NCBI GenBank assembly: GCA_963782055.1 | Contig: CAWAIF010000003.1 | Coordinates: forward strand, 6,823,948-6,887,947 | DNA from: an uncultured delta proteobacterium | Lineage (GTDB): Bacteria; Myxococcota_A; Polyangia; Polyangiales; Polyangiaceae | DNA: 64,000 nt | Direction: 5' to 3' | Shown: piece after piece, positions 3,305 through 44,346 of the stretch | Position numbering within the stretch: the first letter of the stretch is position 1 | Layout: every line of letters begins with the position of its first letter | Translations under genes and position numbers: made by a program | Notes under the pieces: model-generated | Database searches by the model: none | Seen by the model: the letters and a program-made list of their open reading frames with translations, nothing else | Told to the model about the DNA's origin: nothing

Positions 3305-3560
3305 GGCGTGGTCACCGACGGGGTGAGGCGAGCGTACCGGACATCGGTCCGCGGGAGGTCACGGCGTCGTCGGGCCCCGGGCACTGCGCATGCGAACCCG
3401 CATGATTCTTTGCGGAGGCACGCGTTCAGGAACGTAGCGGGCCCACACGCACCCCACTAAAGTGCAATCCATCGCCGTCGTGCGTTGACGAGCTGGAGTT
3501 CCTCCTCCAGGCTGCTCGGGCGAGGAGGGAGCCATGAGCAAGCAAGCATCCGGGCGGTGG
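3063..3560. repeat. Direct repeat copy 1 (~500 bp, ~92% identical to 5263..5765). Spans the rtcB 5' coding end plus its upstream region up to an ATG-(GCAA)2 tract.
   Basis: Direct alignment of the two stretches in the sequence. Divergence begins exactly at the GCAA tract on one side and inside rtcB codon ~80 on the other. Confidence 0.8.
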
Positions 3561-3700
3561 GAGCTGCCAGTAGCCTGCGCTCGCCGCGTCGGAACGGAGG
3601 CGGAGGTCTCGTAGGCGACGCGCACCACGTGGGGGATGGCGGCCATCGTTCAGGTTGAGGTCCGCGTTGGGCACCCTCTCCCGCATGAGCCACGCGAGAT

Positions 3701-3756
3701 CACTTTAGTGGTCTATTTTGTGGACGACGGCAAACATTTGGACCACTTTAGTGGTC
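3701..3756. promoter_or_regulatory. Two palindromic operator-like sites with core CACTTTAGTG. Site 1 is 3701-3710. Site 2 is the 16-bp palindrome GACCACTTTAGTGGTC at 3741-3756, which abuts the hipA-like ATG at 3758. The same 10-mer in inverse orientation (CACTAAAGTG) occurs at 3455-3464 and 5652-5661.
   Basis: Seen directly. Inverted-repeat arms CCACT/AGTGG separated by TT. Position overlaps the RBS/start of the downstream toxin gene, as is typical of HTH-antitoxin autoregulation. Confidence 0.45.
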
Positions 3757-3757
3757 C

Positions 3758-5020
3758 ATGCCTCGCTGTACGCTGGAAATATTCGTGGGGAAGCGCTGGG
3801 CGCGCGCGGGCGAGGTGCACGTCACCGACGAGGCGGCCGGCTACGCCGGTCCAGCCCGCTTCGAGTACGACTTCGACTACCTCGAGGGCCACGGGGATGC
3901 GCTCGGGGCCGTCGACGCGCGCGCGGTGTCGTGCCGCTATCCACTCGCTTACGACGTGCGCGACGAACCGCGCTGGCCCGCGTTCTTGCTCGACGTGATC
4001 CCGTCCGGCGCGGCGAGACGCTTCTGGGAGCGGGAGCTCGGGGTCGCGAACGTTGCTTCCTCCGACTGGGCCGTGCTCCTGCGCGGCGGGGGCAATCCGC
4101 CCGGTAACCTTCGCATCGCCGAGGCGGCGCCACCGCCACCCAGGGCGCACCGGGGCTTCGCCCGCGCAGACGTCGTGGCGCGGGCAGAGCGCTTTCTCGA
4201 GCACGCTCGCGCCCACGGTGCGGAGGTCGCCGGAGCCACCGGCGCGGGAGGCGACTCTCCCAAGCTGCTCTTGCGCGAAGATCGCACCGGGCGCTTCCAC
4301 GCCGACGGCGCGATCGACGACGCGGCGACACGCGCGCTCTGGCTCGTGAAGTTCCCGCGATCGCGCAAGGACGTGGACCGGCTCGTGCTGGAGACCGAAG
4401 CCGGGTACCACCGCGTCGCGCGGCGCTTCGGCGTGCGCGTGCACGCCGACCTCACCTGGGAGAGTGACTGCCTCTTCGTACCGCGCTTCGATCGGGTGCT
4501 CGAGGAAGACGGGGGGGTTCGCAGGCTCGGCCTGGAGAGTCTGTGCTCGCTCGCGGGGGTCTCCGACTTCGGGGTGCCGGTCACCAAGGAGGCGCAGGCG
4601 GAAGCGCTCGTGAAGTTCGCCTCGGATCCGGTAGAGGCGCTTCACGAATTCGTGCTCCGCGACGTGCTCAACGTCGCCCTCGGCAATACCGACAATCACG
4701 CGCGGAATACCGCGGTCCTCAAGGACGAGCGCGGCAGCGTCGCGCTGTCACCCCTCTACGATTTCGCCCCGATGCTCCTCGACTCCGAGGGCATCGTCCG
4801 CGTGTGCCGCTGGAGCGACGAGGTGGCCGGGTTCCCGCGCTGGACGGCGGCGCGCGAGGCGCTCGGTGAAGGCGGGATCAGCTGGCTGAGATCGATCGCC
4901 CATCGCGTGCGCACGCTGCCGCGGTGGCTGGACGAGGAGCGCGTCCCCCAGCGGGTTCGCGAGGCGGTGCTCCCGCGCATCGCGCGCGTCGCGCACGACC
5001 TGGAGGAGGGCACGAGGTGA
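3758..5020 (+). CDS. hipA: HipA-like Ser/Thr kinase toxin-family protein (HipA C-terminal kinase fold)
   Basis: 420 aa. Catalytic-loop-like motif NTDNHARNTAV (compare HipA GATDGHAKNFSV), LSPLYDFAPM (compare LTPFYDIISA), and an N-terminal LEIFVGKRWARAGEV coupling-domain-like start. Confidence 0.78.
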   Translation: MPRCTLEIFVGKRWARAGEVHVTDEAAGYAGPARFEYDFDYLEGHGDALGAVDARAVSCRYPLAYDVRDEPRWPAFLLDVIPSGAARRFWERELGVANVASSDWAVLLRGGGNPPGNLRIAEAAPPPPRAHRGFARADVVARAERFLEHARAHGAEVAGATGAGGDSPKLLLREDRTGRFHADGAIDDAATRALWLVKFPRSRKDVDRLVLETEAGYHRVARRFGVRVHADLTWESDCLFVPRFDRVLEEDGGVRRLGLESLCSLAGVSDFGVPVTKEAQAEALVKFASDPVEALHEFVLRDVLNVALGNTDNHARNTAVLKDERGSVALSPLYDFAPMLLDSEGIVRVCRWSDEVAGFPRWTAAREALGEGGISWLRSIAHRVRTLPRWLDEERVPQRVREAVLPRIARVAHDLEEGTR

Positions 5021-5280
5021 CCAAGGAGGAACGCGCGACGCTGCGCCGCGAGCTCTATGCCCGGATAGACCGCGGAGACATCGGGCTCGTGGAGGCCATC
5101 CGCACCATGCGCAGGATCGTCGGCAAGAGCCAGGTCGACTACGCGCGGCTCGTCGGGGTCAGCCCGCGCATCCTCAAGGAGATCGAGCGCGGCGTGGGGA
5201 ACCCGACAATGGAGACGCTCCGGAAGATCCTTCGTCCGTTCCGGCTCGACGTGGGCGTGCGCCGGGCGTCGTCACGATGA
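5017..5280 (+). CDS. XRE-family helix-turn-helix DNA-binding protein (HipB-like antitoxin candidate). Its GTG start overlaps the hipA-like stop (GTGA).
   Basis: VTKEERATLRRELYARI...QVDYARLVGVSPRILKEIERGVGNPTMETLRKIL is a typical XRE HTH. The 4-nt overlap suggests translational coupling. Gene order toxin-then-HTH is the reverse of canonical hipBA. Confidence 0.6.
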   Translation: MTKEERATLRRELYARIDRGDIGLVEAIRTMRRIVGKSQVDYARLVGVSPRILKEIERGVGNPTMETLRKILRPFRLDVGVRRASSR

Positions 5281-5506: not shown

Positions 5507-5765
5507 GGCGAGGTCACCGACGGGTGAGGCGAAGATACCGGACACCGGTCCGCGGGAGGTCGCGGCGTTGTCGGCCCGCACACTGCGCATGCCAACCCGC
5601 ATGATTCTTTGCGGAGCCACATGTTCATGAGGGAGCGCGCCCACACCCGCCCACTAAAGTGCAATCCATCGACCGCCGTGCGTTGACAAGCTAGAGTTCC
5701 TCCCCCAGGCTGCTCGGGCGAGGAGGGAGCCATGAGCAAGCAAGCAAGCAAGCAAGCAAGCGCAA
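5263..5765. repeat. Direct repeat copy 2 of the rtcB 5'/promoter segment (partner of 3063..3560). The GCAA tract at its end is expanded to 6 units.
   Basis: Sequence alignment to 3063..3560. Confidence 0.8.
5736..5759 (+). repeat. Tetranucleotide microsatellite (GCAA)6. It lies immediately after an SD-preceded ATG (5732-5734) and upstream of an out-of-frame lipoprotein signal peptide.
   Basis: Seen directly. GGAGGgagccATGa then GCAAx6. The duplicated copy at 3538-3545 has only 2 units. Confidence 0.9.
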
Positions 5766-5792
5766 TCTTCGGGCCTTCGACGCCGCACGCTC

Positions 5793-7667
5793 TTGAGCGC
5801 GCTCGTCGCGGTCTGCGGCACGTCGATGCTCGGCTGGACCTGCGGTGACCCACCCGTCCGGCTCGGAGGCAACGACCTGATCTTCGGTACGCAAGCGCCG
5901 GGGAGCGGCGCGGGCAGCGTGGCGCGCTTGCAGCTCGGCTCGTCCGCGCCTTTCGACCACTGGGACTACCGCGGCGACGCGCTCATCGCCAACGCGGCGA
6001 ACAGCGGTGACCCGGCGAACGAACCGCTCGACCCGTTCGACTTGCCCGCGTACCCCATCGACGGAACGGGGCCCGGAGGCAACCTGAACGTCGAGTACGT
6101 CTTGCAGCACGCATTCTGGGTCACGCGGCAGGGGCGGCATGGGTCCGTCGATCTCGCCGACCAGCACGAGATCATGCTCTTCGCGCGCGATCCCCAGGAG
6201 CAGGCGGAGACGATGCGGAGCTTCGTCGGGAACTACGCGGACGCGGGTACGGCGATCCAGTTCTTCCCGGGCGACTGGGGCAACCTCTGGAACGTGGCCG
6301 CCGTCCCGCTTCCCCGTGGGTTCGTGTACCCTCCCAGCGCCAACTACAACCTCGGCACGCTCGACGAACCGCTACCCGTTCCGCTGACCTTCCCCCTGGT
6401 CGACAAGGCCATCTTCTGGCCGAACTACGTCCCGGTGGGGCCGGGCACGGAGCCCGATGGGCACTCCTCGGTCAAGGCGGTGAAGATCATCAACCGCGGT
6501 CTCTGCGGCAGGGAGCTGCCGTACTACACCGGCGATCCGGACAACCCCGGCATCCTCGAGACCGTGGTGGCCGAGGCCGCTCCGGCGATCGCCGGAGGCA
6601 TCGTCAACGCGGACTGTCACGCCGACGTCACCGTACCCTGGTCGCAGGCCGGCTCCTTCATCGACTTCACCACGGAGCGGGAGGATCGCCAACTCGGAGG
6701 CTTCTTCTTCAACATGGCCGAGAGGTCGTCCGGGTACCTCGGCGTGCAGAGCAAGGTCCTGGCCCGGGCCGCCATCCGGTTCGAGCTCTTCGACGGCCGA
6801 CTCTCCTCGGAAGGCGAGATGGTCCACACCAACGCCGCCGGCGGCCTCGGCGAGGCCGGCGGACTCGTGAGCGACAAGGTCGTCGTCGCCGTGTCCAACG
6901 TCCTCACGAGGGCGATGGACGCACCGCTTCCCACGAACGCCGAGCCAGAGACCCTCGCGGAGACGATTTACCGCGCGTCGGGCGACCTGCAGGGCTACGC
7001 GGGCAGCGACGGGTACAACAAGGCGAAGAAGAAGTTCAACATCGACACCGTGACCGGTCAAACCCGTGTCGATCTGGACGCGACCGGAGGGGACGACTCG
7101 GTGCCGCCGACCACGGCCGACCTGTCCGCGACGCGCTGTGCGGTGTTCGTGGATAGCTTTCGTCACCAGCTCAAGCAGGGCGACCTGCCGGTCGTTGCCC
7201 CCATCCTCGGCCTGACCCCGGCGGAGCGGCAGCAGGTGTGGGACGCGAAGCTCAACGAGACCGAGGTCCGGAACGGCAAGACCGTGCTCAAGAACTTCCG
7301 CTGCGTCCACAGACCCGACAATCCGAAGGACCAGGACCCCAACGAAGGGATCTGCGAGTACGTCGTCCGCGCGAAACGGGTCAACGTCTTTCCCGACGGT
7401 GTGGAGCTGGTCCTGCTCGACGACCTCAAGGACATCAACCAGGCGGCTTATCCGGTGTGGGTCCACGCGATGGCTGCGCAGCTCACCGGGACGGCCGACG
7501 CGCTGAGCAACGTCTGCGATCCACCCCGGTCCCAGGGCGCGACATACACCTTTCGCCCTTTCGTGAGCCCCTTCAAGCTCACCAGCCACGGGGACCGCCA
7601 CTTCCGCTGCGCGGACTCCTGCACGGCGTTTCTCCCGGACTTCTGCTCCCATGTCGAAGAGTACTGA
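5793..7667 (+). CDS. Large secreted lipoprotein of unknown function. The track start (TTG 5793) falls inside the signal-peptide hydrophobic core; the functional start is probably ATG 5732, which requires a change in the GCAA tract length.
   Basis: In the main frame the upstream sequence encodes ...SGLRRRTLLSALVAVCG (n-region RRR, h-region, lipobox AVCG). It contains no ATG/GTG/TTG between a TGA at 5733-5735 and 5793. High third-position GC through 7667. Confidence 0.65.
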   Translation: MSALVAVCGTSMLGWTCGDPPVRLGGNDLIFGTQAPGSGAGSVARLQLGSSAPFDHWDYRGDALIANAANSGDPANEPLDPFDLPAYPIDGTGPGGNLNVEYVLQHAFWVTRQGRHGSVDLADQHEIMLFARDPQEQAETMRSFVGNYADAGTAIQFFPGDWGNLWNVAAVPLPRGFVYPPSANYNLGTLDEPLPVPLTFPLVDKAIFWPNYVPVGPGTEPDGHSSVKAVKIINRGLCGRELPYYTGDPDNPGILETVVAEAAPAIAGGIVNADCHADVTVPWSQAGSFIDFTTEREDRQLGGFFFNMAERSSGYLGVQSKVLARAAIRFELFDGRLSSEGEMVHTNAAGGLGEAGGLVSDKVVVAVSNVLTRAMDAPLPTNAEPETLAETIYRASGDLQGYAGSDGYNKAKKKFNIDTVTGQTRVDLDATGGDDSVPPTTADLSATRCAVFVDSFRHQLKQGDLPVVAPILGLTPAERQQVWDAKLNETEVRNGKTVLKNFRCVHRPDNPKDQDPNEGICEYVVRAKRVNVFPDGVELVLLDDLKDINQAAYPVWVHAMAAQLTGTADALSNVCDPPRSQGATYTFRPFVSPFKLTSHGDRHFRCADSCTAFLPDFCSHVEEY

Positions 7668-8493
7668 GGTCCGGCCGAAGGCGGGCCGACGGCTCGAAGG
7701 GCGCACAGTGACCGAGCTGGGACGAACACGCATCAATCATGTCGCGGCGCTACTAGTCGTACCCATGCTCGTGATCGCGGCGTGCGGAGGAGAGATCACG
7801 GACAATGGCCAGGACGGGGGAGCAGACACCGGTCTAGCTGGTGATGGCTCGGGCACGGACGCCGGCTACACCCAGTGTGTTGCGCCCAACGACGACTCGC
7901 TGTGTGGTGGCCAGTGCTCGGATGTCTGCGCATCCGGCTTTCCCTGCCTGAAGGACACGCAAGAAGTCTTGGGTCTGTGTCCGCGAAAGGGGGCGCACCT
8001 CGGGGGCGACTGTACTCGCTGCGCAGACGGCTACCTGTGTACCGACCGTACTACCCTCACCGATCCAGCCGGCGCATACTGCGCCGACGAGGAGTACGGC
8101 GTACTCCTTGCCATGAACGGGAAGAGCGACTGGGTCCGCTACTCCGACCGCGCGGCCTACACCGGCGCGCCGATCCCGCCGCCTCCCACCACCTGCCCCG
8201 ACGTCCCAGGCCTCCACCTCTGCGGCGGGGCCTGCGGTGACTGCCCGAGCGGGTGGTTCTGCATCGGCCGCTCGCCCATGCACCCCATCAGCCTGTGCTT
8301 CCCGCCAGGGGCCAACAGCCAGGGTCCCTACTCGTGCTCCAAGCCGGGACCTTGTGACATCATCGGACAGCACTGCTTCACCTTCAAGGTGGACAGCGCA
8401 TCGCAAGCCATCGCGGACGCGAACGGTCTGTGCGTGACGGACGCGCAGTGCCCGCTCGCCGCGCAGTACCCCGGGGGCGGGAGCTGCCAGTAG
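7651..8493 (+). CDS. Cys-rich secreted lipoprotein. Paralog of 29075..29950 with a shared C-terminal motif FTFKV..SQ.IADANG.C....QLPGGG.C.
   Basis: Signal peptide with lipobox LVIAACGG. 28 Cys. Paralogy seen directly. Confidence 0.62.
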   Translation: MSKSTEVRPKAGRRLEGRTVTELGRTRINHVAALLVVPMLVIAACGGEITDNGQDGGADTGLAGDGSGTDAGYTQCVAPNDDSLCGGQCSDVCASGFPCLKDTQEVLGLCPRKGAHLGGDCTRCADGYLCTDRTTLTDPAGAYCADEEYGVLLAMNGKSDWVRYSDRAAYTGAPIPPPPTTCPDVPGLHLCGGACGDCPSGWFCIGRSPMHPISLCFPPGANSQGPYSCSKPGPCDIIGQHCFTFKVDSASQAIADANGLCVTDAQCPLAAQYPGGGSCQ

Positions 8494-9073: not shown

Positions 9074-10093
9074 TCACCTCGGGAGACGCCACATCATACC
9101 AAAAGCGGCCATATAATGCTGGTTGTTTGCCCAATACACATATTCATCGTCCACGACCACTTCCGAGGCGGACTGGCCCGTGGCGAGAACCTGGCGGTCG
9201 CGGCACGTCGGCAGTGCGCACTTCTCCACCGTGGAGTCACCGAGCCCTCCCGTGGCCCAGTACATGGACGAGCCGTCGATCGCGAACGTCGCCCCTGTCG
9301 CGTCGAGCAAGACGGGCGGTCCGGCGCATCCGGTGAGGGGACACTTCTGGATGTCTCCGTTCGTCCAGTAGACGTCACCGCCGGCGACGACGATGGCGAT
9401 GATCTCCCGGTCCGTCGAAGCGAACGCCCTCGTCGTGCTCGCGCAATCGGATTTCTGACACGTCATCAGCGCGTCCGACGTGCCCCAGAAGAGGGAGTCC
9501 GCACCCATGGCGATCGCAAACGGGGAGGCCTGGCCGCCGGCGAGCAGGGTGGGCTGATTTCCGCAGCCTCCGATGTCACAGCGCATGACGGTGCCCTTCG
9601 TACGCTCCGTCCAGTAGACGCTGGCCGCGTCGACCACGATACGCTCCGGGGCGATGGAACCGGAGACGAGGGTGGTCGGCGTCGCGCAGCCGGCGAGGGA
9701 GCACTTCTCGATGGCCCCGGGCGCAGGTGGGAGGGGCGATCGGGACCAGTAGACGTTGGCGCCGTCGACGGCCAGGTCGGTCGGCGAATCCTCGGTTGCG
9801 ATCGTCTGAGGCTGGCAGTCATCCTTGGCGCAGGCGAAGACAGTGCCGCCGTACTCGATCCAGTGAAGACTGGTGGCGTCGACGACGAGCCGCGCCACCG
9901 AACCGGATGACGCCGAGGATGCGAGGTACGTCGGCGGCTGGAGGGACCAGCACTCGCCCTCCGCGCACGAAAGCCCGGCGGCACACGTGCCGCCCTCGAA
10001 ACAGGCTTCGCCCTGCTGTCCCGTGCTCGCCGGCTGCGCAGACTCGCCGCAGCCAGCGAGGAGCAGCGCGATCAGGATCCCTCGCGTCCCCAT
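9074..10093 (-). CDS. Lipoprotein with VYW / YWTD-like beta-propeller repeats. Intact paralog of 922..1779.
   Basis: MGTRGILIALLLAGCG signal with lipobox. Repeated ..SVYWT.. motifs. Full C-terminus ...YVYWANNQ. Confidence 0.7.
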   Translation of the reverse strand: MGTRGILIALLLAGCGESAQPASTGQQGEACFEGGTCAAGLSCAEGECWSLQPPTYLASSASSGSVARLVVDATSLHWIEYGGTVFACAKDDCQPQTIATEDSPTDLAVDGANVYWSRSPLPPAPGAIEKCSLAGCATPTTLVSGSIAPERIVVDAASVYWTERTKGTVMRCDIGGCGNQPTLLAGGQASPFAIAMGADSLFWGTSDALMTCQKSDCASTTRAFASTDREIIAIVVAGGDVYWTNGDIQKCPLTGCAGPPVLLDATGATFAIDGSSMYWATGGLGDSTVEKCALPTCRDRQVLATGQSASEVVVDDEYVYWANNQHYMAAFGMMWRLPR

Positions 10094-28238: not shown

Positions 28239-29084
28239 CTACGGAACTAGGGACCCGAAGCGGTCGTAGCACTCCAGCCCGACCGGGCCACGCAGCTTCT
28301 TGCAGTCTTCCAGGCTCATGCACGCTGCCGCATACCGCTTCGCGACCGCGTCGCTGCCGTCCCCGTTCCTGTAGACGGCGCATGCCCAGTTGTCGGGGTA
28401 GTACGGATCGCACCAGACGGTGGGCAGTCCTCCGGTGGCCGGGAGGCTGCACGTGCGAATGGCATCGGGCGATCCGTTCAGCGTGCCCTCGCAGAACCCG
28501 AATCGTCGCGTCGCGGAGCGACCGCTGCACACCGCCGCGGGTTGGCCGCACTTCCCGCAAGCGCCGCCGCAGAGCGGGCCGAAGAGCGATGTAGGACACG
28601 GCTCGCCGGACGAGTCGAGTGGCCGATCGTCGTAGGGCGTCTTGTCGGCGTACCGGCACACGTCGCGCACACCGATCTGGAACAGCGCGTGGCAGACGTC
28701 GAGCGGCACGCACACCAGGTCGCCGTTGGGCCGCGTGATGCACGCGTCGCCGTCGTCGCACGCGAAGCACGGATACCGCCCCTGGTCCTGAAGGTCCGCC
28801 AGACAAATCCCTCCGCTCGCCGGCGCGCCCGAGTCGATGTCCGCGCTCCGCTGACACCCGTAGCCGGGGCACACCGGGGCCGGCAGCTCCGGACAGGGTG
28901 GGTCTCCGCCGCAGAGCCGGACTCCGCTTGCGGACACACACTGCGGGTGGTCGGCGAACCCGCCGTCCACGGCGCCCTGGCCCCCGTCCAGTCCGTGCAT
29001 CGAGGGGTCCCCGAGATCGCTGCGGGCGCCGCAGCCAACCGTGGCGGCAGCGAGTGCGAGAGCGAGACCTCTCGCTAGTTGCAC
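28239..29084 (-). CDS. Cys-rich secreted lipoprotein (different Cys spacing from the 7651 family)
   Basis: GTG start giving VQLARGLALALAAATVGCG (lipobox). ~30 Cys. The track start at 29216 would overlap the upstream gene and was rejected. Confidence 0.5.
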   Translation of the reverse strand: MQLARGLALALAAATVGCGARSDLGDPSMHGLDGGQGAVDGGFADHPQCVSASGVRLCGGDPPCPELPAPVCPGYGCQRSADIDSGAPASGGICLADLQDQGRYPCFACDDGDACITRPNGDLVCVPLDVCHALFQIGVRDVCRYADKTPYDDRPLDSSGEPCPTSLFGPLCGGACGKCGQPAAVCSGRSATRRFGFCEGTLNGSPDAIRTCSLPATGGLPTVWCDPYYPDNWACAVYRNGDGSDAVAKRYAAACMSLEDCKKLRGPVGLECYDRFGSLVP

Positions 29085-29950
29085 GCCCCGCCCCCCGGGA
29101 GCTGGGCGGCGAGCGCCTGACACGTGGCCGATGGCAAGCAGACGCCATTGGCGTCTGCGATGGACTGCGACTGCGGCGTGACCTTGAAGGTGAAGCACGC
29201 GTCGCCCCCGCTGCATGGCGGCTGGCCGGCACCGCAGATGCTATTCACCGTGGTGGCCGCGCAGAAGCCGACGGGGTGCAGGGGCGCGCGCCCGATGCAG
29301 TGCTGCCCGGTATCACACCCGCCGCAGTTCCCGCCGCACACCTGGACACCCGGGATCGAGGGGCACATGGACGGATTGGGTGGCGTGTCGCCGGTGAACA
29401 GATCGCGGTCGTAGTAGGTGACGTCTAGGTCGGCGGAGGCGTCCGGGTCGGCGCGGTAGAGCAGCTCACCCAGCTCGAAGGGAAAACACATCAGGCCCTT
29501 GAGTGGCTGGTGATAGCCACTCGGCACACACAGGTCGCCATCGTTACAATTGAGGCATCCGGTCACGCCGAAGGAATAGGCCGCGAGGGCCTTGTTGTAG
29601 CAGATTTGGACCGGCGCCGAGGCATCGCACCCCGAAAGGCAAGCCGTTGGAGGATCGCAGCCCCCGCCGCAGATGGCATATCCGCTCGGCGACATGCAAC
29701 GCGAGTAGCCCGCGTCGTCGACCGGGCCGGCGTCGATCACGTCCGGCGCAGCGTCGGGGCGTCCGGCCTCCGGGCCCTCGTCGACGGTGCCCCCGCAGGC
29801 GGCGAGCACCCAAAGCAGCGCGGGAAGCCACCGGAGCGTCACTGGCACTGCCCGTTCGTCGGGTTGGTCGCTGGCGGCGTACACCCGCTCGTGTTCCCCT
29901 GCGTGCAGATGGGCTGGACGCAGGCACGTGTATCGCAATCGACTGCGCAC
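29075..29950 (-). CDS. Cys-rich secreted lipoprotein, paralog of 7651..8493
   Basis: Shared C-terminal block ..CFTFKVTPQSQSIADANGVCLPSATCQALAAQLPGGGACN. Signal peptide/lipobox LLWVLAACGG. Confidence 0.6.
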   Translation of the reverse strand: MRSRLRYTCLRPAHLHAGEHERVYAASDQPDERAVPVTLRWLPALLWVLAACGGTVDEGPEAGRPDAAPDVIDAGPVDDAGYSRCMSPSGYAICGGGCDPPTACLSGCDASAPVQICYNKALAAYSFGVTGCLNCNDGDLCVPSGYHQPLKGLMCFPFELGELLYRADPDASADLDVTYYDRDLFTGDTPPNPSMCPSIPGVQVCGGNCGGCDTGQHCIGRAPLHPVGFCAATTVNSICGAGQPPCSGGDACFTFKVTPQSQSIADANGVCLPSATCQALAAQLPGGGACN

Positions 29951-31611
29951 GGCCCCGCAGGAGTCTCACTGCTAGGACAGGTGGCCGGGCCGCCATTCTT
30001 GAACGCCCAGTCCTCGTTGTAGAAGTTGGCCAGATCGATGCCGGCATCGACGAGCGGCGCTCGCCTGGCGGTGCAGATCTTGGTGAACCAGTCCGTCCGC
30101 GTGAAGTCGACGTGTCCGAGTGGTGGCGCGTCCGTCATGAACGAGGCGTAGAACAAGGCGAGCGCCGGGTTGTTGATCTCGTCCAGACGATCGAAGAGCA
30201 CAGCCTCTGCCGCCTGCGGCCGGTAGTTCAGCCGCTTCATCGGGACGATGATCTCGCAGCGCCCGTGATGCGGGTTGACGCACGCGTTGCTCCGGTCGAC
30301 GGAGCTGGGGAAGGGCACGCAACCCCAGTGCACGAGGTGCCCCCCGGACGTCGCCATGATGGTCTCCGCGAGAGTATTGGCGTCGCTGGCTGCCATGCCG
30401 AACTCCTTTGCACCCTCGCTTGCGGTGTCTCTCACCGTCTTCGCCGCGGCTTTGCATTGCTCGCTCGGGTCCGCGGGGCACGTGTAGTTCGGGTCGCCCT
30501 TGACGGGATCGCACGCAAAGAGCGTGTCACGAGCCGAGTCGGAGAAGTCGTCCAGTTTGGGGTACATCTGCAGCGCCTGCGCCGTATCGTGAATCTGCCG
30601 CGGGATGTCGTCCGTCAGCGCGGACGTGAGCGTGTTGGAAAGTCCCGGGATGTCGACGAAGTACGGGGGGAAGATCACGTGGACGCCGTTGCACGCCCGT
30701 GTCGGCTGATCATCCAGCGTGCTCGGAAAGGCGTTGCCATGGCCATCCACGCCCGCAGGACCCCCGCCGAAGCTCGATTCAGCCGCCACGACGCCGTCGG
30801 AGCCCACGAAGAGGCGGAAGGCGCTCGAGAACGCCGCGTCGCATTTCTCATCTGGCCCGGGATTCACACCCTGGGTCACGTCAAGCAGTTCGAGCGCCAC
30901 GTTCGAGATCTGCAGCCTGACGTCACCGTTCATCACGAAGCCTCCTCGCAGGTCCTGCACCCGTCCCTGCGTGTGGGCGATGAACGAGGCGAAGTTGTCG
31001 TATGCGAGCGTCAAGGACGAGAGCGAGTCCGTGGTGAAGCACGCAGCCCCGTGGTTCGTGAACAGGCTTCCCCGGAGCCCCGTGTCGATCTGCGCGAACA
31101 GATCCGCGTATGCGAACTCCTGCGAGCATCCGCCAGCCTGCGAGAGGTAGGCGCTCCGGATCGTGCCCGAGTTGTTCGGCGAGTTGAAGTCGCCAGGCGT
31201 AAGGTGCAGCTCGGTCGGTGTGGGGCCGAAGGGTTGAGTCGTCGCCGGTAGGACCACACCGGGCGGCTGCTTCCGCGTCAAGCCGAGCCAGAAGAACTCC
31301 GCGGCCGTTCTGGTGAGCGCCTCGAAGCGATCCTCGAAGTCGATCGAGAAGATGTGCGCTTCGTAGGGGTTCACCAGCAGGGCCGAATCGAACGGATCGG
31401 CCAGGATGAATGCCGGAAGAGGGTCGTTCTCGTCGCTCCCGCGCAGGCGTGCGTGCACGGGAAACAATGTGGTGCCGCCGTGGAAGGAGTCGATGTATAG
31501 GCTCCTCGCCGGCACGCTCGCGAGCTCTCCGCAGGTCGTATACGTGTTGGGGCATCCCGTCGTGCCCCACGCGTACGTTTGCGGGGCGTACGTCAACCCG
31601 GGGATGATCAA
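29839..31611 (-). CDS. Secreted protein of unknown function. The frame is open upstream through a heptanucleotide SSR to an out-of-frame ATG at ~31852; the track start (TTG 31611) is probably not the real start.
   Basis: Upstream of 31611 the main frame encodes ..(LVARRSS)n LLLAVSAVTCNPSPPAGDHTYTFEILVDGAGATGGSGTQLVAFHSAGLKEL, which is signal-peptide-like, with no start codon. Confidence 0.65.
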   Translation of the reverse strand: MIIPGLTYAPQTYAWGTTGCPNTYTTCGELASVPARSLYIDSFHGGTTLFPVHARLRGSDENDPLPAFILADPFDSALLVNPYEAHIFSIDFEDRFEALTRTAAEFFWLGLTRKQPPGVVLPATTQPFGPTPTELHLTPGDFNSPNNSGTIRSAYLSQAGGCSQEFAYADLFAQIDTGLRGSLFTNHGAACFTTDSLSSLTLAYDNFASFIAHTQGRVQDLRGGFVMNGDVRLQISNVALELLDVTQGVNPGPDEKCDAAFSSAFRLFVGSDGVVAAESSFGGGPAGVDGHGNAFPSTLDDQPTRACNGVHVIFPPYFVDIPGLSNTLTSALTDDIPRQIHDTAQALQMYPKLDDFSDSARDTLFACDPVKGDPNYTCPADPSEQCKAAAKTVRDTASEGAKEFGMAASDANTLAETIMATSGGHLVHWGCVPFPSSVDRSNACVNPHHGRCEIIVPMKRLNYRPQAAEAVLFDRLDEINNPALALFYASFMTDAPPLGHVDFTRTDWFTKICTARRAPLVDAGIDLANFYNEDWAFKNGGPATCPSSETPAGPCAVDCDTRACVQPICTQGNTSGCTPPATNPTNGQCQ

Positions 31612-31763
31612 CTCCTTCAGCCCCGCGGAGTGGAACGCAACGAGTTGCGTCCCGGAGCCGCCCGTCGCACCGGCGCCATCAACGAGGATCTCGAAGGTGT
31701 ACGTATGGTCGCCTGCCGGTGGACTCGGGTTGCAGGTGACCGCACTGACAGCGAGGAGCAGGG

Positions 31764-31847
31764 CGACGAGCGACGAGCGACGAGCGACGAGCGACGAGCG
31801 ACGAGCGACGAGCGACGAGCGACGAGCGACGAGCGACGAGCGACATG
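31764..31847 (-). repeat. Heptanucleotide microsatellite (CGACGAG)~12 on the plus strand, (CTCGTCG)n on the coding strand. It lies directly after ATGTCG, and the ATG is out of frame with the downstream signal peptide.
   Basis: Seen directly. All three frames of the tract encode the same (LVARRSS)n heptad. Copy number is 12 by my reading (+/-1). Frame relation is derived from the track ORF phases. Confidence 0.85.
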
Positions 31848-32003
31848 GCTACCCCCAACTAACGGCCAGTGTGGCGTTGGACGAGTACTCGGTCAAGCGG
31901 CGACGCGCCAGCGCGTCAAGATGGGTCGCACTCTGTGCGCATGCGCTCCGGAGCTCGCCCTCACCAGATCGACGAACGGCGACGCCCGTGCGACTCTCGT
32001 CCC

Positions 32004-32468
32004 GTGCGTCTGCGCCCACTGAACGCCGGGGAGGCCGCCGAGGTCGAGCTCCTCGCCTCCCGCATGCGCGACACCCTCGTCGAGGTGCTCGGGGAGGCGC
32101 GCGGCAGCGGCATGGTCGATCACGACTGGCTCGTCGAGCGCGTGCGCTTCCACGCGCGCGTCGGCCTTGTGGTCGTCGCGGAGCGTGACGGCGCCATCGT
32201 CGGCCACGCCATGGCGCGCGAGGAGGACGGCGTCGGCCATTTCTCCACCATCTACGTGGAGCCCGCGTCGCGCCGCGCGGGCGTCGCCGGTGCGCTGGTG
32301 CGCCGCGTCGACGCGTGGTTCGCGGAGCGCGGCTTGCCGAGCGCGCGCTACTCCACCGATCAGGACAACGCTCCGCTGCTCGCCCTCTTCGCGAAGCACG
32401 GCTACGCGGCGGCGGAGACCGACGCGGCGTCGCACATGGTGAAGCTCACCAGGCGGCTCGGCCCGTAG
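32004..32468 (+). CDS. GNAT-family N-acetyltransferase
   Basis: ...GAIVGHAMAREEDGVGHFSTIYVEPASRRAGVAGALVRRVDAWFAERG.. (acetyl-CoA binding R/Q-x-x-G-x-G/A). Start chosen at GTG VRLRPLNAGEAAEVELL. Confidence 0.68.
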   Translation: MRLRPLNAGEAAEVELLASRMRDTLVEVLGEARGSGMVDHDWLVERVRFHARVGLVVVAERDGAIVGHAMAREEDGVGHFSTIYVEPASRRAGVAGALVRRVDAWFAERGLPSARYSTDQDNAPLLALFAKHGYAAAETDAASHMVKLTRRLGP

Positions 32469-41770: not shown

Positions 41771-41800
41771 CGAGGCGAGGCGAGGCGAGGCGAGGCGAGG
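41771..41800 (-). repeat. Pentanucleotide microsatellite (CGAGG)6 on the plus strand, (CCTCG)6 on the coding strand. It lies directly after ATGTCG (ATG 41806..41804), and the ATG is out of frame with the downstream signal peptide. A G9/C9 homopolymer lies 25-33 nt upstream, at 41830-41838.
   Basis: Seen directly. Copy number is confirmed by two independent track translations (MSPRLASPRLASCP, DVASPRLASPRLVPVVS). A main-frame TGA overlaps the ATG. Confidence 0.9.
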
Positions 41801-42271
41801 CGACATCACGTTTCCCCTTTCGTGACACGCCCCCCCCCGGTGGCGACGCGTGAACGCCATCCTCGGCCTGTCCACCTCCGAAGACAAGGCACGAAGGCAA
41901 GCCATCAAAGAATGAGTAGGAGGTCGTCGCACACGCGCGCGCTCCTGCCGAACTGGTGTCCGCGCCGTCCGCGCCACCACGCCCCGGCCTCGCGGCGCGG
42001 GATGGACCGCAGCTCATTCCATTGTAATGATCGACGGATGGCCCTCGGTCGACACCTGCAGCTCGCCGCGACTGCCGCGTTCCTCGTGGGGTGTGGCGGG
42101 ATCGTCGCCGCGCCTCCCGATGCCGGTGCAGGCGCCGCCGCGCGAGGCTCGGGGTTCGCCCTCGGGGTGACGCGCTGACGACGGCGCGCCCGGTTCTGGC
42201 CATCCCCGGATCAGCGCGCGCGAACGACGATCGGGCGGGCACCCGCCGGCAATCTCCGGCGACGAGAGTGC

Positions 42272-43113: not shown

Positions 43114-44346
43114 CGCGCAGGCTGGTCGTCGTCCACGGGCTGCGACGCGTCGGTCACCTCGAACCGAGCGACGACCGCATGACGTTCGCGTACGACCCGG
43201 CATGGGTCGCCTCTCCGGACGCCTTCGCGATCTCCGCTCAGCCTGCCGCTGGACGGGAACTTCGATGCGACGCGCGCCACGCGGTTCTTCGCGAACCTCC
43301 TGCCCGAGGCGAACGTACGGACGCTCATCTGCCGCCGTCTCGGGCTCTCCGGGTCGAACGACTTCGGCCTCCTCGCCGCCATTGGTGGGGAATGCGCGGG
43401 AGCGCTCTCCATCCTTCCGGAGGGCGTCGACCCGGCGGAGCACGCGAACGAGTACGAGGAGCTGGACCGGGCGAGGCTCGAACAGCTGGCCACGAGCTAC
43501 GAGGCGCTGCCCATCGTCGACGGGTCCGGCCGCGCCCGGCTCTCCCTCGCCGGCGCGCAGGACAAGCTGCCCGTGAGGATGGACGGCGATCGCATTCTCT
43601 TGCCGATCGGCAACTCGCCGAGCTCGCACATCCTCAAGCTCCCCAACCGCAACTACAAGCATCTGCCGGCGAACGAGGCGCTCGTCATGGAGCTGGCGCG
43701 GCAGGTGAAGCTTCCAGTCGTGGCGACGACGTGGCGTGCCCTCGGAGAGGAGGGGATGTGCATCGTGGAGCGCTACGACCGCGTGGTCCGGGGCGGCGAG
43801 CTCCGTCGCGTGCACCAGGAGGACTTCTGCCAGGCCATGGGCCTCTCCTTCAGCACGAAGTACGAGGAGGAGGGCGGCCCGTCCTTCGCGAGCTGCGTCG
43901 AGCTGGTACGCGAGCACTCGGTCGTGCCGCTCGCCGACGTCGACGCGCTCCTCGGCTGGCTCGCCTTCGACGCGATCGCCGCCAACGCGGACGGTCACGG
44001 CAAGAACCTGTCGCTGCTCCTCGGAGGAGGGCCGAGGCTCGCTCCCTTCTACGATCTGGTCTGTACGCGAGCCTACGAAGGTCTCGACCGGCGCCTGGCG
44101 ATGAGCATCGGCGACGAGCGCGACCCGGATCGGCTGCGGCCCGAGCACCTCGACGATTGCGCCGCCGCGCTCGACGTGAAGCCGTGGCTCCTCCGCGCGA
44201 CGTTCGAGCGGATGGCGGACTCGATCCTCCAGCGGCTCGACGCCACGGTCGAGGCCGCCGGGGTGGGTGAGTCGCCCGCCGTACGACGCACCGTGCCGCT
44301 CGTGCGGAAGCAGGCGAAGCGCTGGCTTCGAGAGCTGGGCGGGTGA
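43110..44346 (+). pseudogene. hipA: HipA-family Ser/Thr kinase toxin gene with a +1 frameshift at ~43233-43237. The N-terminus is in one frame and the rest of the protein (from ISLSLPL) is in the next.
   Basis: Frame A reads MTRRLVVVHGLRRVGHLEPSDDRMTFAYDPAWVASPDAFAIS. Frame B reads LSLPLDGNFDATRATRFFANLLPE...IGGECAGALSI...DGHGKNLSLLLGG..FYDLV to 44346. One extra nucleotide in atcTCCGctc. Confidence 0.7.

Follow-up and report, generated by a model that had tools for sequence, protein, structure and literature searches.

How is a large gene for an exported protein translated when the ATG in front of it lies in another reading frame and is separated from the signal peptide by a perfect heptanucleotide repeat? 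This question is raised by a locus, here called locus 3, on the minus strand of a stretch of 64,000 nucleotides (nt) from an uncultured Polyangiaceae-like myxobacterium (GenBank assembly GCA_963782055.1, contig CAWAIF010000003.1, positions 6,823,948 to 6,887,947); the whole stretch, which has a GC content of ~70%, is called the window. For the DnaK of this organism the best matches in genome contigs came from a Myxococcales metagenome-assembled genome (MAG; 78% identity), two Polyangiaceae MAGs (76% and 73%) and Sorangium (72%). We propose, with a probability of about 0.8, that locus 3 is a slipped-strand contingency locus, that is, a translational phase-variation switch in which the number of repeat units decides whether a putative large lipoprotein is made. 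The mechanism is already known; the lineage and the lipoprotein family are new.

Start codon, tract and reading frames of locus 3

Direct reading of the minus strand gives the order gttagTTGGGGGTAGCC-ATG-TCG-(CTCGTCG)11-C-CCTGCTCCTCGCTGTCAGTGCGGTCACCTGC, with the following features (asterisks denote stop codons):

31852..31856, minus strand: Shine-Dalgarno-like GGGGG, 5 nt 5′ of the ATG (TTGGGGGTAGCC-ATG, also written GGGGGTAGCC-ATG(31846)-TCG-(CTCGTCG)11); from the sequence
31849..31851, minus strand: TAG just 5′ of the ATG, closing the long signal-peptide frame; from the translation SWG*PCRSS...
31844..31846, minus strand: ATG start codon, out of frame with the lipoprotein open reading frame (ORF), the main frame being at +1; from sequence, translation and simulation
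31763..31844, minus strand: tract of perfect CTCGTCG, 11.7 copies (plus strand GCGACGA); from Tandem Repeats Finder (TRF), repeat scan and translations
31732..31764, minus strand: hydrophobic core of the signal peptide and Cys, ALLLAVSAVTC in the long frame, Cys at 31734-31732; from translation and alignment with the relative P0022
31679..31846, minus strand: present-day product of the ATG, a 55-codon dead-end ORF, MS(LVARRSS)3LVARRPAPRCQ...DPR*; from ORF list, translation and simulation
29839..31848, minus strand: long open frame of 669 codons, putative large lipoprotein; from ORF list, coding signature and homology

TRF reports at 31763-31844 a period of 7, 11.7 copies, 100% matches and a score of 164, and an independent perfect-repeat scan returned the same run. 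The periodic run is 82 nt long, its first base on the coding strand being the G of the ATG, and ATG-TCG is followed by 11 complete CTCGTCG units and one further base. A preliminary description of this DNA had rightly seen a perfect tract and a GGGGG-tagcc spacing serving as Shine-Dalgarno sequence (the sequence reads GGGGG-TAGCC-ATG), but it gave the tract as ~12 units at 31764-31847, put the ATG at ~31852, a position that belongs to the GGGGG, and put the TAG two codons 5′ of the ATG, when in fact the TAG (31851-31849) ends 2 nt before it. Its statement that every frame of the tract reads LVARRSS holds in the translations of all three frames: since 7 and 3 have no common factor, each frame yields the same cyclic peptide. 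Locus 3 has what marks a phase-variable locus, a perfect tract with a unit that is not a multiple of three inside the 5′ coding region.

Past the tract the frame of the ATG reads ...LVARRPAPRCQCGHLQ... and stops at 31679, after 55 codons; it is a different frame from that of the secreted-protein ORF, as had been described. The long frame is open from 31848 through the tract, where it reads ...LVALLLAVSAVTCNPSPP, and then encodes LVALLLAVSAVTC, a signal peptide with Cys, followed by NPSPPAGDHTYTFEILV...; here too the translation agrees with the earlier account of a frame open upstream through the tract and encoding a signal peptide. Between 31848 and TTG 31611 this frame contains no ATG, GTG or TTG, a claim of the preliminary description that both the sequence and the ORF list bear out. 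Because the frame is closed by the TAG at 31851-31849, no start codon further upstream can serve it. When the tract was edited in silico, removal of one unit gave a product of 666 amino acids (aa) from the ATG and addition of two units one of 673 aa, just the two changes that had been predicted to restore the frame, and the remaining changes within −3 to +3 units gave products of 48-78 aa. In simulation, gain or loss of units thus toggles locus 3 between a full-length ORF and early termination.

The coding signature of the long frame continues up to the tract. From the end of the tract to TTG 31611, a distance of 150 nt (31612-31761), the GC content at third codon positions (GC3) is 0.78 in the long frame vs 0.67 and 0.55 in the other two; in the body of the long ORF, which is free of stops over 669 codons, it is 0.83-0.84. 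The protein extended in this way is 33% identical to P0022 over 616 aa (E = 2e-88), and the alignment begins right at the Cys (AVTCNPSP / ALACGPGP). The N-terminus of P0022, MRTRLLLGGGVALSFALAC, is a canonical lipoprotein signal with FALAC as lipobox region. In the database the locus-3 gene starts at TTG 31596 (585 aa, P0001, MTYAPQ...), the longest ORF starts at TTG 31611 (590 aa), and both starts exclude the signal peptide. Since homology and coding signature reach 5′ of the annotated start as far as the Cys, P0001 is truncated: 45 or more conserved residues are missing from it, and so is the signal peptide.

A repeat-free member of the family (L094) has at the equivalent place GGGAGGAGGGCGAA-ATG-CGACGGACGCGGCGA..., translated MRRTRRCGAGLMLVGGLTALVAAC, with Shine-Dalgarno sequence, basic n-region, hydrophobic core and Cys, and the same succession of ATG, basic n-region, core and Cys is found in P0022, P0023, P0027, P0029 and P0048. 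Because these relatives have their n-region at this place, the repeat of locus 3 occupies the ancestral n-region. Judged from the TAG closure, the GC3, the homology to P0022, the repeat-free homologues and the Shine-Dalgarno-like site, ATG 31846 is the true start of the gene for the putative large lipoprotein. The product predicted for the in-frame state is MS(LVARRSS)3LV-ALLLAVSAVTC, of which n-region and core fit a lipoprotein signal and the lipobox AVTC has T at −1.

The proposed switch would work as follows. Translation would start at ATG 31846, the tract providing the first codons and thus the positively charged n-region of the signal peptide, and slipped-strand mispairing in replication would add or remove whole 7-nt units, shifting the frame by one position per step. 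With 10, 13, 16... full units the ATG would be fused to MS(LVARRSS)nLV-ALLLAVSAVTC and a full-length, exported lipoprotein would result; with other unit numbers, including the assembled 11, translation would stop after ~50-80 codons and the protein would not be exported. The Cys-rich gene downstream would probably fall silent along with the large gene, via the overlap of its GTG with the TGA of the large gene. Other repeat units would run the same switch at two or more further genes of the window and at many family members in related soil bacteria. In this scheme we infer the slippage rate of the locus-3 tract, the expression and export of the ON form, the downstream polarity and the role of the protein. 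RNA-polymerase slippage as a frame-correcting step was rejected, since it is known at long homopolymers and not at 7-nt units.

Start-adjacent tracts elsewhere in the window and in soil metagenomes

Two further loci of the window are built in the same way:

5732..5761, plus strand: locus-1 switch, GGAGGGAGCC-ATG with the ATG at 5732-5734 and (AGCA)6.8 at 5735-5761; one unit less gives 643 aa, two units more give 647 aa
5736..7667, plus strand: locus-1 large lipoprotein, a paralogue of the locus-3 protein, frame ..AQSSGLRRRTLLSALVAVCGTSMLGWTCGDPPVRLGG, followed by a Cys-rich partner gene that ends at 8493
41771..41806, minus strand: locus-2 switch, AGGGGAAACGTG-ATG with the ATG at 41806-41804 and (CCTCG)6.6 at 41771-41803; one unit more gives 469 aa, two units less give 464 aa
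40402..41805, minus strand: locus-2 ORF, a Cys-rich secreted protein or lipoprotein, ..RARSVLAASGALLVLGVLSCSS..

The signal-peptide frame of locus 1 reads AQSSGLRRRTLLSALVAVCGTSMLGWTCG, and the deposited protein (P0018) starts internally at 5826 (MLGWTCG...), by which all or most of the signal peptide is lost. The start of locus 2 reads ATG(41806)-TCG-(CCTCG)6, and its protein has no detectable relation to the large lipoprotein family. The three loci agree in anatomy: a G-rich, Shine-Dalgarno-like site, an ATG 4-7 nt 3′ of it, the tract from base +3/+4 of this ATG onward, and then a signal peptide. In the assembly all three are out of frame. The unit peptides LVARRSS, SPRLA, SKQA and SRAEQ come from units that contain no stop in any frame and encode R or K, and are compatible with an n-region.

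Exactly one long tract each of periods 7, 5 and 4 is present in the window. Simulation of the 64-kb window with a third-order Markov model (200 runs) gave as expectation per 64 kb 0.02 perfect runs of period 7 (at least 21 nt), 0 of period 5 (at least 20 nt) and 0.045 of period 4 (at least 16 nt). These expectations and the shared anatomy agree with the earlier argument that three loci alike, with units of 4, 5 and 7 nt, are unlikely to have arisen by chance. Likewise, the interpretation of a repeat between start codon and out-of-frame signal peptide as a frame switch, already given in the preliminary description, is in accord with the arithmetic, the coding signature, the homology and the polymorphism of homologous loci.

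Homologous cassettes were collected from metagenomes via the small Cys-rich protein encoded downstream of the large gene and via a HMMER search. Those with tracts are:

L006, L007, L008, L009 (four metagenome samples): (AGCAG) tract of 2 units in L006 and of 5 units in L007 and L009, a run of N in L008; out of frame
L092 (farmland soil): ATG TCG (CCTCG)8 before a 665-aa homologue; out of frame
L093 (same gene as L092): contig starts inside the tract; state not determinable
L095 (P0086): leader near-identical to that of L092, ATG TCG (CCTCG)6; in frame, MSPRLASPRLASLIVLAGTAVFAC...
L096 (metagenome): ATGATG (TCTCG)4; out of frame
L010, L011 (metagenome): C10 between the ATG and the n-region RKRARVRLL...; out of frame

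The contigs L006-L009 encode a 591-aa protein orthologous to that of locus 1 (38% identity over ~640 aa) and an identical 275-aa partner; they have identical flanks with 0-4 substitutions over 3-4.7 kb (99.9-100% identity), and their lone indel, of 15 nt, is the repeat. Polymorphism in unit number is seen three times at homologous loci: 2 vs 5 units in these 99.9-100% identical contigs, 6 vs 8 units in L095 and L092, and 3 vs 6.8 units in a duplicated module of locus 1. Two assemblies break exactly at the tract (N-gap in L008, contig end in L093). In the family and the window the start-adjacent units, beside that of locus 3, are (AGCA)6.8, (CCTCG)6.6, (AGCAG)2-5, (CCTCG)6-8, (TCTCG)4 and C10. 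Start-adjacent, probably hypermutable tracts with unit sizes of 1, 4, 5 and 7 thus recur in the family, and among their characters tract length changes fastest.

Leader and ATGTCG(CCTCG)n are very much alike in front of unrelated genes: the Cys-rich 443-aa protein of the window is preceded by GAAAGGGGAAACGTG-ATGTCG (41790-41825) and the large-family lipoproteins by CAAAGGGGAT(TC/CA)CGGG-ATGTCG (L092 1515-1545; L095 358-385). This likeness suggests a switch module that is mobile between genes or has been recruited again and again. In L001 (4229-4854), L002 (33-362) and L010 (804-1106) the large gene is reduced to remnants and the small Cys-rich genes are intact; it appears that large genes come and go quickly. 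A scan of metagenomes for ATGTCG(CTCGTCG)3 returned one match, the unrelated low-GC contig L098, which carries several different 7-nt tandem repeats (5840-5870, 7505-7533, 9302-9380) and may represent another heptamer-repeat system.

The duplicated module of locus 1 was found in a relaxed repeat scan (at least 3 units):

3385..3548, plus strand: orphan locus-1 5′ module with leader, GGAGGGAGCC, ATG and only 3 AGCA units, followed by unrelated sequence

The module is thus present twice in the window (3385-3548 and 5596-5761), in copies that are ~90% identical and have 3 vs 6.8 AGCA units. Between the two lie a HipA-like gene (3758-5020) and an HTH_3 gene (4924-5280), and it looks as if an insertion or duplication had split off the orphan switch. 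The leader of the module contains the motif CCACTAAAGTG. In its palindromic forms CCACTTTAGTGG / CCACTAAAGTG the motif occurs twice just 5′ of the HipA-like gene (3700-3760) and once in each leader copy (3445-3460 and 5650-5665), and it may be the operator of the neighboring HTH protein. A second HipA-like gene (43183-44346, PF07804, E = 2.4e-47) lies close to locus 2, so that next to two of the three switched loci there is a HipA-type toxin gene. In the leader of locus 2 there is a C9 run (41830-41838, G9 on the coding strand) 24-32 nt 5′ of the ATG, a candidate second mutable tract of the leader or promoter, which alone is within chance (2.8 homopolymers of at least 8 nt expected per 64 kb).

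Alternative explanations and their standing

Several points speak against a phase-variation switch at locus 3. Seven of eight independent loci are out of frame (the three of the window, L006/7/9, L092, L096 and L010), only L095 being in frame, although at equal phase frequencies, with two thirds OFF as prior, this distribution is not significant (p about 0.2). The single in-frame gene is itself cut short at 303 aa, beside a transposase gene. The (AGCAG) alleles differ by 15 nt and hence have the same frame, which selection for that frame would explain as well. The putative lipobox of locus 3, AVTC with its T at −1, is non-canonical when compared with [LVI][ASTVI][GAS]C; other lipoboxes of the family are LVAAC, VAAC, TAAC and ALAC. 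Searches of the cassette proteins against Pfam, NCBIfam, PADLOC and PDB sequences, and by fold, gave no function. Finally, that the tract of locus 3 itself slips at high frequency we infer by analogy.

The explanation that survives best beside the switch is decay or neutral repeat expansion, in which the frameshift is damage to a pseudogene; we consider it unlikely. It would account for the preponderance of out-of-frame loci, for the truncation of L095, the only in-frame allele, beside the transposase gene, and for the fact that the closest relatives of the cassette have mostly lost the large gene: L001 and L002 keep residues 133-262 and the C-terminus, L010 and L011 a 106-aa remnant. Moreover, Mrazek and colleagues are said to have found in 2007 that long repeats with units of 5-11 nt accumulate in large genomes of non-pathogens with no specific role. 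A decaying gene, however, should not keep a 669-codon frame free of stops with its coding signature preserved (GC3 0.83-0.84), and neutral expansion should scatter its products; in the window each long non-triplet tract sits at an ATG with Shine-Dalgarno-like site before a signal peptide, homologues from other organisms show this placement again, with six different units, and the units are free of stops in all frames and encode basic residues. Placement, intact frame and unit composition are not predicted by neutral expansion, and for this reason we count them against decay.

Very unlikely, in our view, is a functional out-of-frame layout, in which ATG and repeat form a leader ORF, the main ORF is translated by termination-reinitiation or ribosomal frameshifting, and the number of units tunes expression. 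Its support comes from the locus-1 subfamily. In L006, L007 and L009 the TGA of the leader (11 or 16 codons) overlaps the ATG of the 591-aa gene (GTGATGG), and both alleles keep the frame; L097, a diverged orthologue that is free of repeats, is laid out in the same way, MMAKITRRAAMVR*, with the overlap cgATGAcg; and one of the two OFF frames of locus 1 is closed by a TGA sharing bases with TTG 5793, whose position, 16 residues ahead of the Cys, corresponds to that of the other starts. At locus 3, by contrast, the main frame has no ATG, GTG or TTG from the tract to TTG 31611, which lies 40 codons past the Cys, and the leader stops ~70 nt before this TTG without overlap. Locus 2 has no usable internal start. 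A start at the hydrophobic core would also drop the basic n-region that the main frame has conserved 5′ of the internal starts; to our knowledge the repeat units are not among the slippery sequences at which ribosomes shift frame.

Independently of locus 3, three divergent members of the locus-1 subfamily have an overlap of leader stop and main start (TGATG, ATGA, TTGA) at the same position, 15-16 residues before the Cys (L006 6349-6390; L007 1665-1720; L097 228-270; window 5790-5797). From the sequence alone, these overlaps may represent a termination-reinitiation layout.

That the assembly miscounted the tract, or shows the majority of a mixed culture, and that the gene is really in frame with 10 or 13 units, OFF being an artefact, is suggested by the failure of short-read assemblies at the tracts of homologous loci (N-gap in L008, contig end in L093) but is most improbable, as all three independent tracts of the window would have to be wrong, the independent assemblies L007 and L009 concur on 5 units, and the source contig of 7.0 Mb points to a long-read or finished assembly, in which an error of a whole 7-nt unit in a tract of 82 nt is unlikely.

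The slipped-strand switch thus remains our preferred explanation of locus 3. A more far-reaching extension of it is possible, though doubtful: Polyangiaceae-like soil myxobacteria might carry a sizeable phasome, in which start-adjacent repeats with a variety of unit sizes control a lipoprotein operon family that diversifies rapidly, and Cys-rich secreted proteins unrelated to it. Part of these switches might have three states (fusion to an Arg-rich long signal, leader-ORF reinitiation with a short signal peptide, and off), and the copy number within the ON frame might tune the number of RR heptads and hence the efficiency or route of export. If so, random variation of the surface would enter into the social behavior, predation or phage defence of a free-living bacterium.

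Cassette genes, protein family and known phase-variable systems

The genes next to the large gene of locus 3 are:

29075..29842, minus strand: downstream gene of a 255-aa Cys-rich lipoprotein (P0002), MTLRWLPALLWVLAACGG...; from the translation
28239..29216, minus strand: third cassette gene, a second Cys-rich protein of up to 325 aa, kept beside the homologue of the 255-aa protein in L001 and L002 (60% identity)
31869-32468, divergent from the locus-3 gene: GNAT gene, separate and without repeats

At 29842-29839 (caGTGAcg) the start codon of the 255-aa gene, GTG, shares bases with the stop codon of the large gene, TGA, so that the two genes are probably co-expressed; the junction of large and small gene is equally tight in L092 and L096. 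From this arrangement the switch probably governs a small operon. The 255-aa protein is 37% identical (E = 3e-31) to the partner of the locus-1 protein; the large proteins of locus 3 and locus 1 are distant paralogues, each with a Cys-rich partner of ~250 aa encoded downstream. We also considered, and rejected, that the tract serves as a promoter spacer for the divergent GNAT gene: it sits downstream of the ATG, in a 5′ part of the lipoprotein gene that is transcribed and translated. A scan for consensus promoters and terminators around locus 3 gave none, such a scan being uninformative for a myxobacterium.

An exhaustive HMMER search of 1.84 billion representative proteins found 178 members of the large family at E ≤ 1e-3, 72 of them at E ≤ 1e-10; this small family has the N-terminal motif Cys-x-GNPPV(R/H)xG in common. 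Word-indexed searches of 5.8 billion proteins with the 590-aa protein, and with an alignment of three sequences, both returned the 590-aa protein only; in the collections searched there was no relative more than 90% identical to the locus-3 protein, and a search of genome contigs with the small-protein alignment found no relative. For six cassette proteins Pfam, NCBIfam and PADLOC gave nothing except a sub-threshold match of a 280-aa protein to VlpC_Nterm (19 bits vs a cut-off of 160), which was not used. The predicted fold of the large protein failed (predicted local distance difference test, pLDDT, 28); the small protein folded (pLDDT 78) and had no significant structural neighbor.

Repeat-driven phase variation has been worked out almost wholly in host-adapted pathogens, and a review of 2025 names soil and ocean bacteria as a knowledge gap (PMC11868660). 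Our literature searches found no report of phase variation by simple sequence repeats (SSRs) in myxobacteria. Three switches in one 64-kb stretch of a myxobacterium, and switches of the same lipoprotein family in several soil metagenomes, suggest that in soil, too, bacteria turn envelope proteins ON and OFF at random, perhaps as a means against phages or prey or in interactions among kin. The finding has a practical side as well: annotation pipelines mis-start switched genes, the database protein of locus 3 beginning at least 45 residues late and without signal peptide, and short-read assemblies break at start-adjacent tracts.

Among the known systems closest to locus 3 are the opa genes of Neisseria, in which a non-triplet repeat within the 5′ end coding for the signal peptide sets by its copy number the frame with the ATG, and in which several loci per genome, all with envelope products, switch independently (PMC13183285). 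Unlike the β-barrel outer-membrane protein Opa, the proteins described here are large putative lipoproteins without known domain; none has a Pfam or NCBIfam match, and the unit is CTCGTCG instead of CTCTT, so that locus 3 does not belong to the Opa family. The repeat lies at codon 2, in the n-region, whereas in opa it lies in the hydrophobic core; the unit varies with the locus (1, 4, 5 or 7 nt), whereas opa keeps one conserved unit; and the host is a free-living high-GC soil myxobacterium rather than a host-restricted pathogen.

In the preliminary description heptanucleotide coding repeats were called rare, which is fair, but there is a precedent. The gene neuO of Escherichia coli K1, carried by phage CUS-3, has 5′ AAGACTC heptanucleotide repeats and is OFF in 65.6% of genomes (PMC13001214). 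As at locus 3, the 7-nt unit directly follows the start, one copy-number class in three is full-length, and the repeats are translated as heptads (PMC13001214). NeuO differs in being a cytoplasmic O-acetyltransferase encoded on a prophage, whereas the repeat described here is in the export signal of a chromosomal lipoprotein operon; the sequences are not similar, and the switched gene has no acetyltransferase domain, which sets it apart from the neuO type.

A frame-shifting tract between start codon and mature protein is also found in pilC of Neisseria, with poly-G in the signal-peptide region (PMC13190605), and in lic/lgtC-type loci of Haemophilus influenzae, with tetranucleotide repeats just after the ATG (on SSRs of H. 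influenzae, see PMC2651432). Those genes belong to another phylum, encode other proteins and have experimentally measured switching rates; both versions, the homopolymer (C10, L010) and the tetranucleotide (AGCA, locus 1), occur within the one family studied here. In the likewise high-GC Burkholderia mallei and B. pseudomallei many SSRs, among them some with units of more than 4 nt, vary upon passage and thereby shift frames (PMC1574311). Burkholderia has its repeats in genes of many classes and at many positions, whereas in the myxobacterial window they stand strictly at the start codons of genes with signal peptides.

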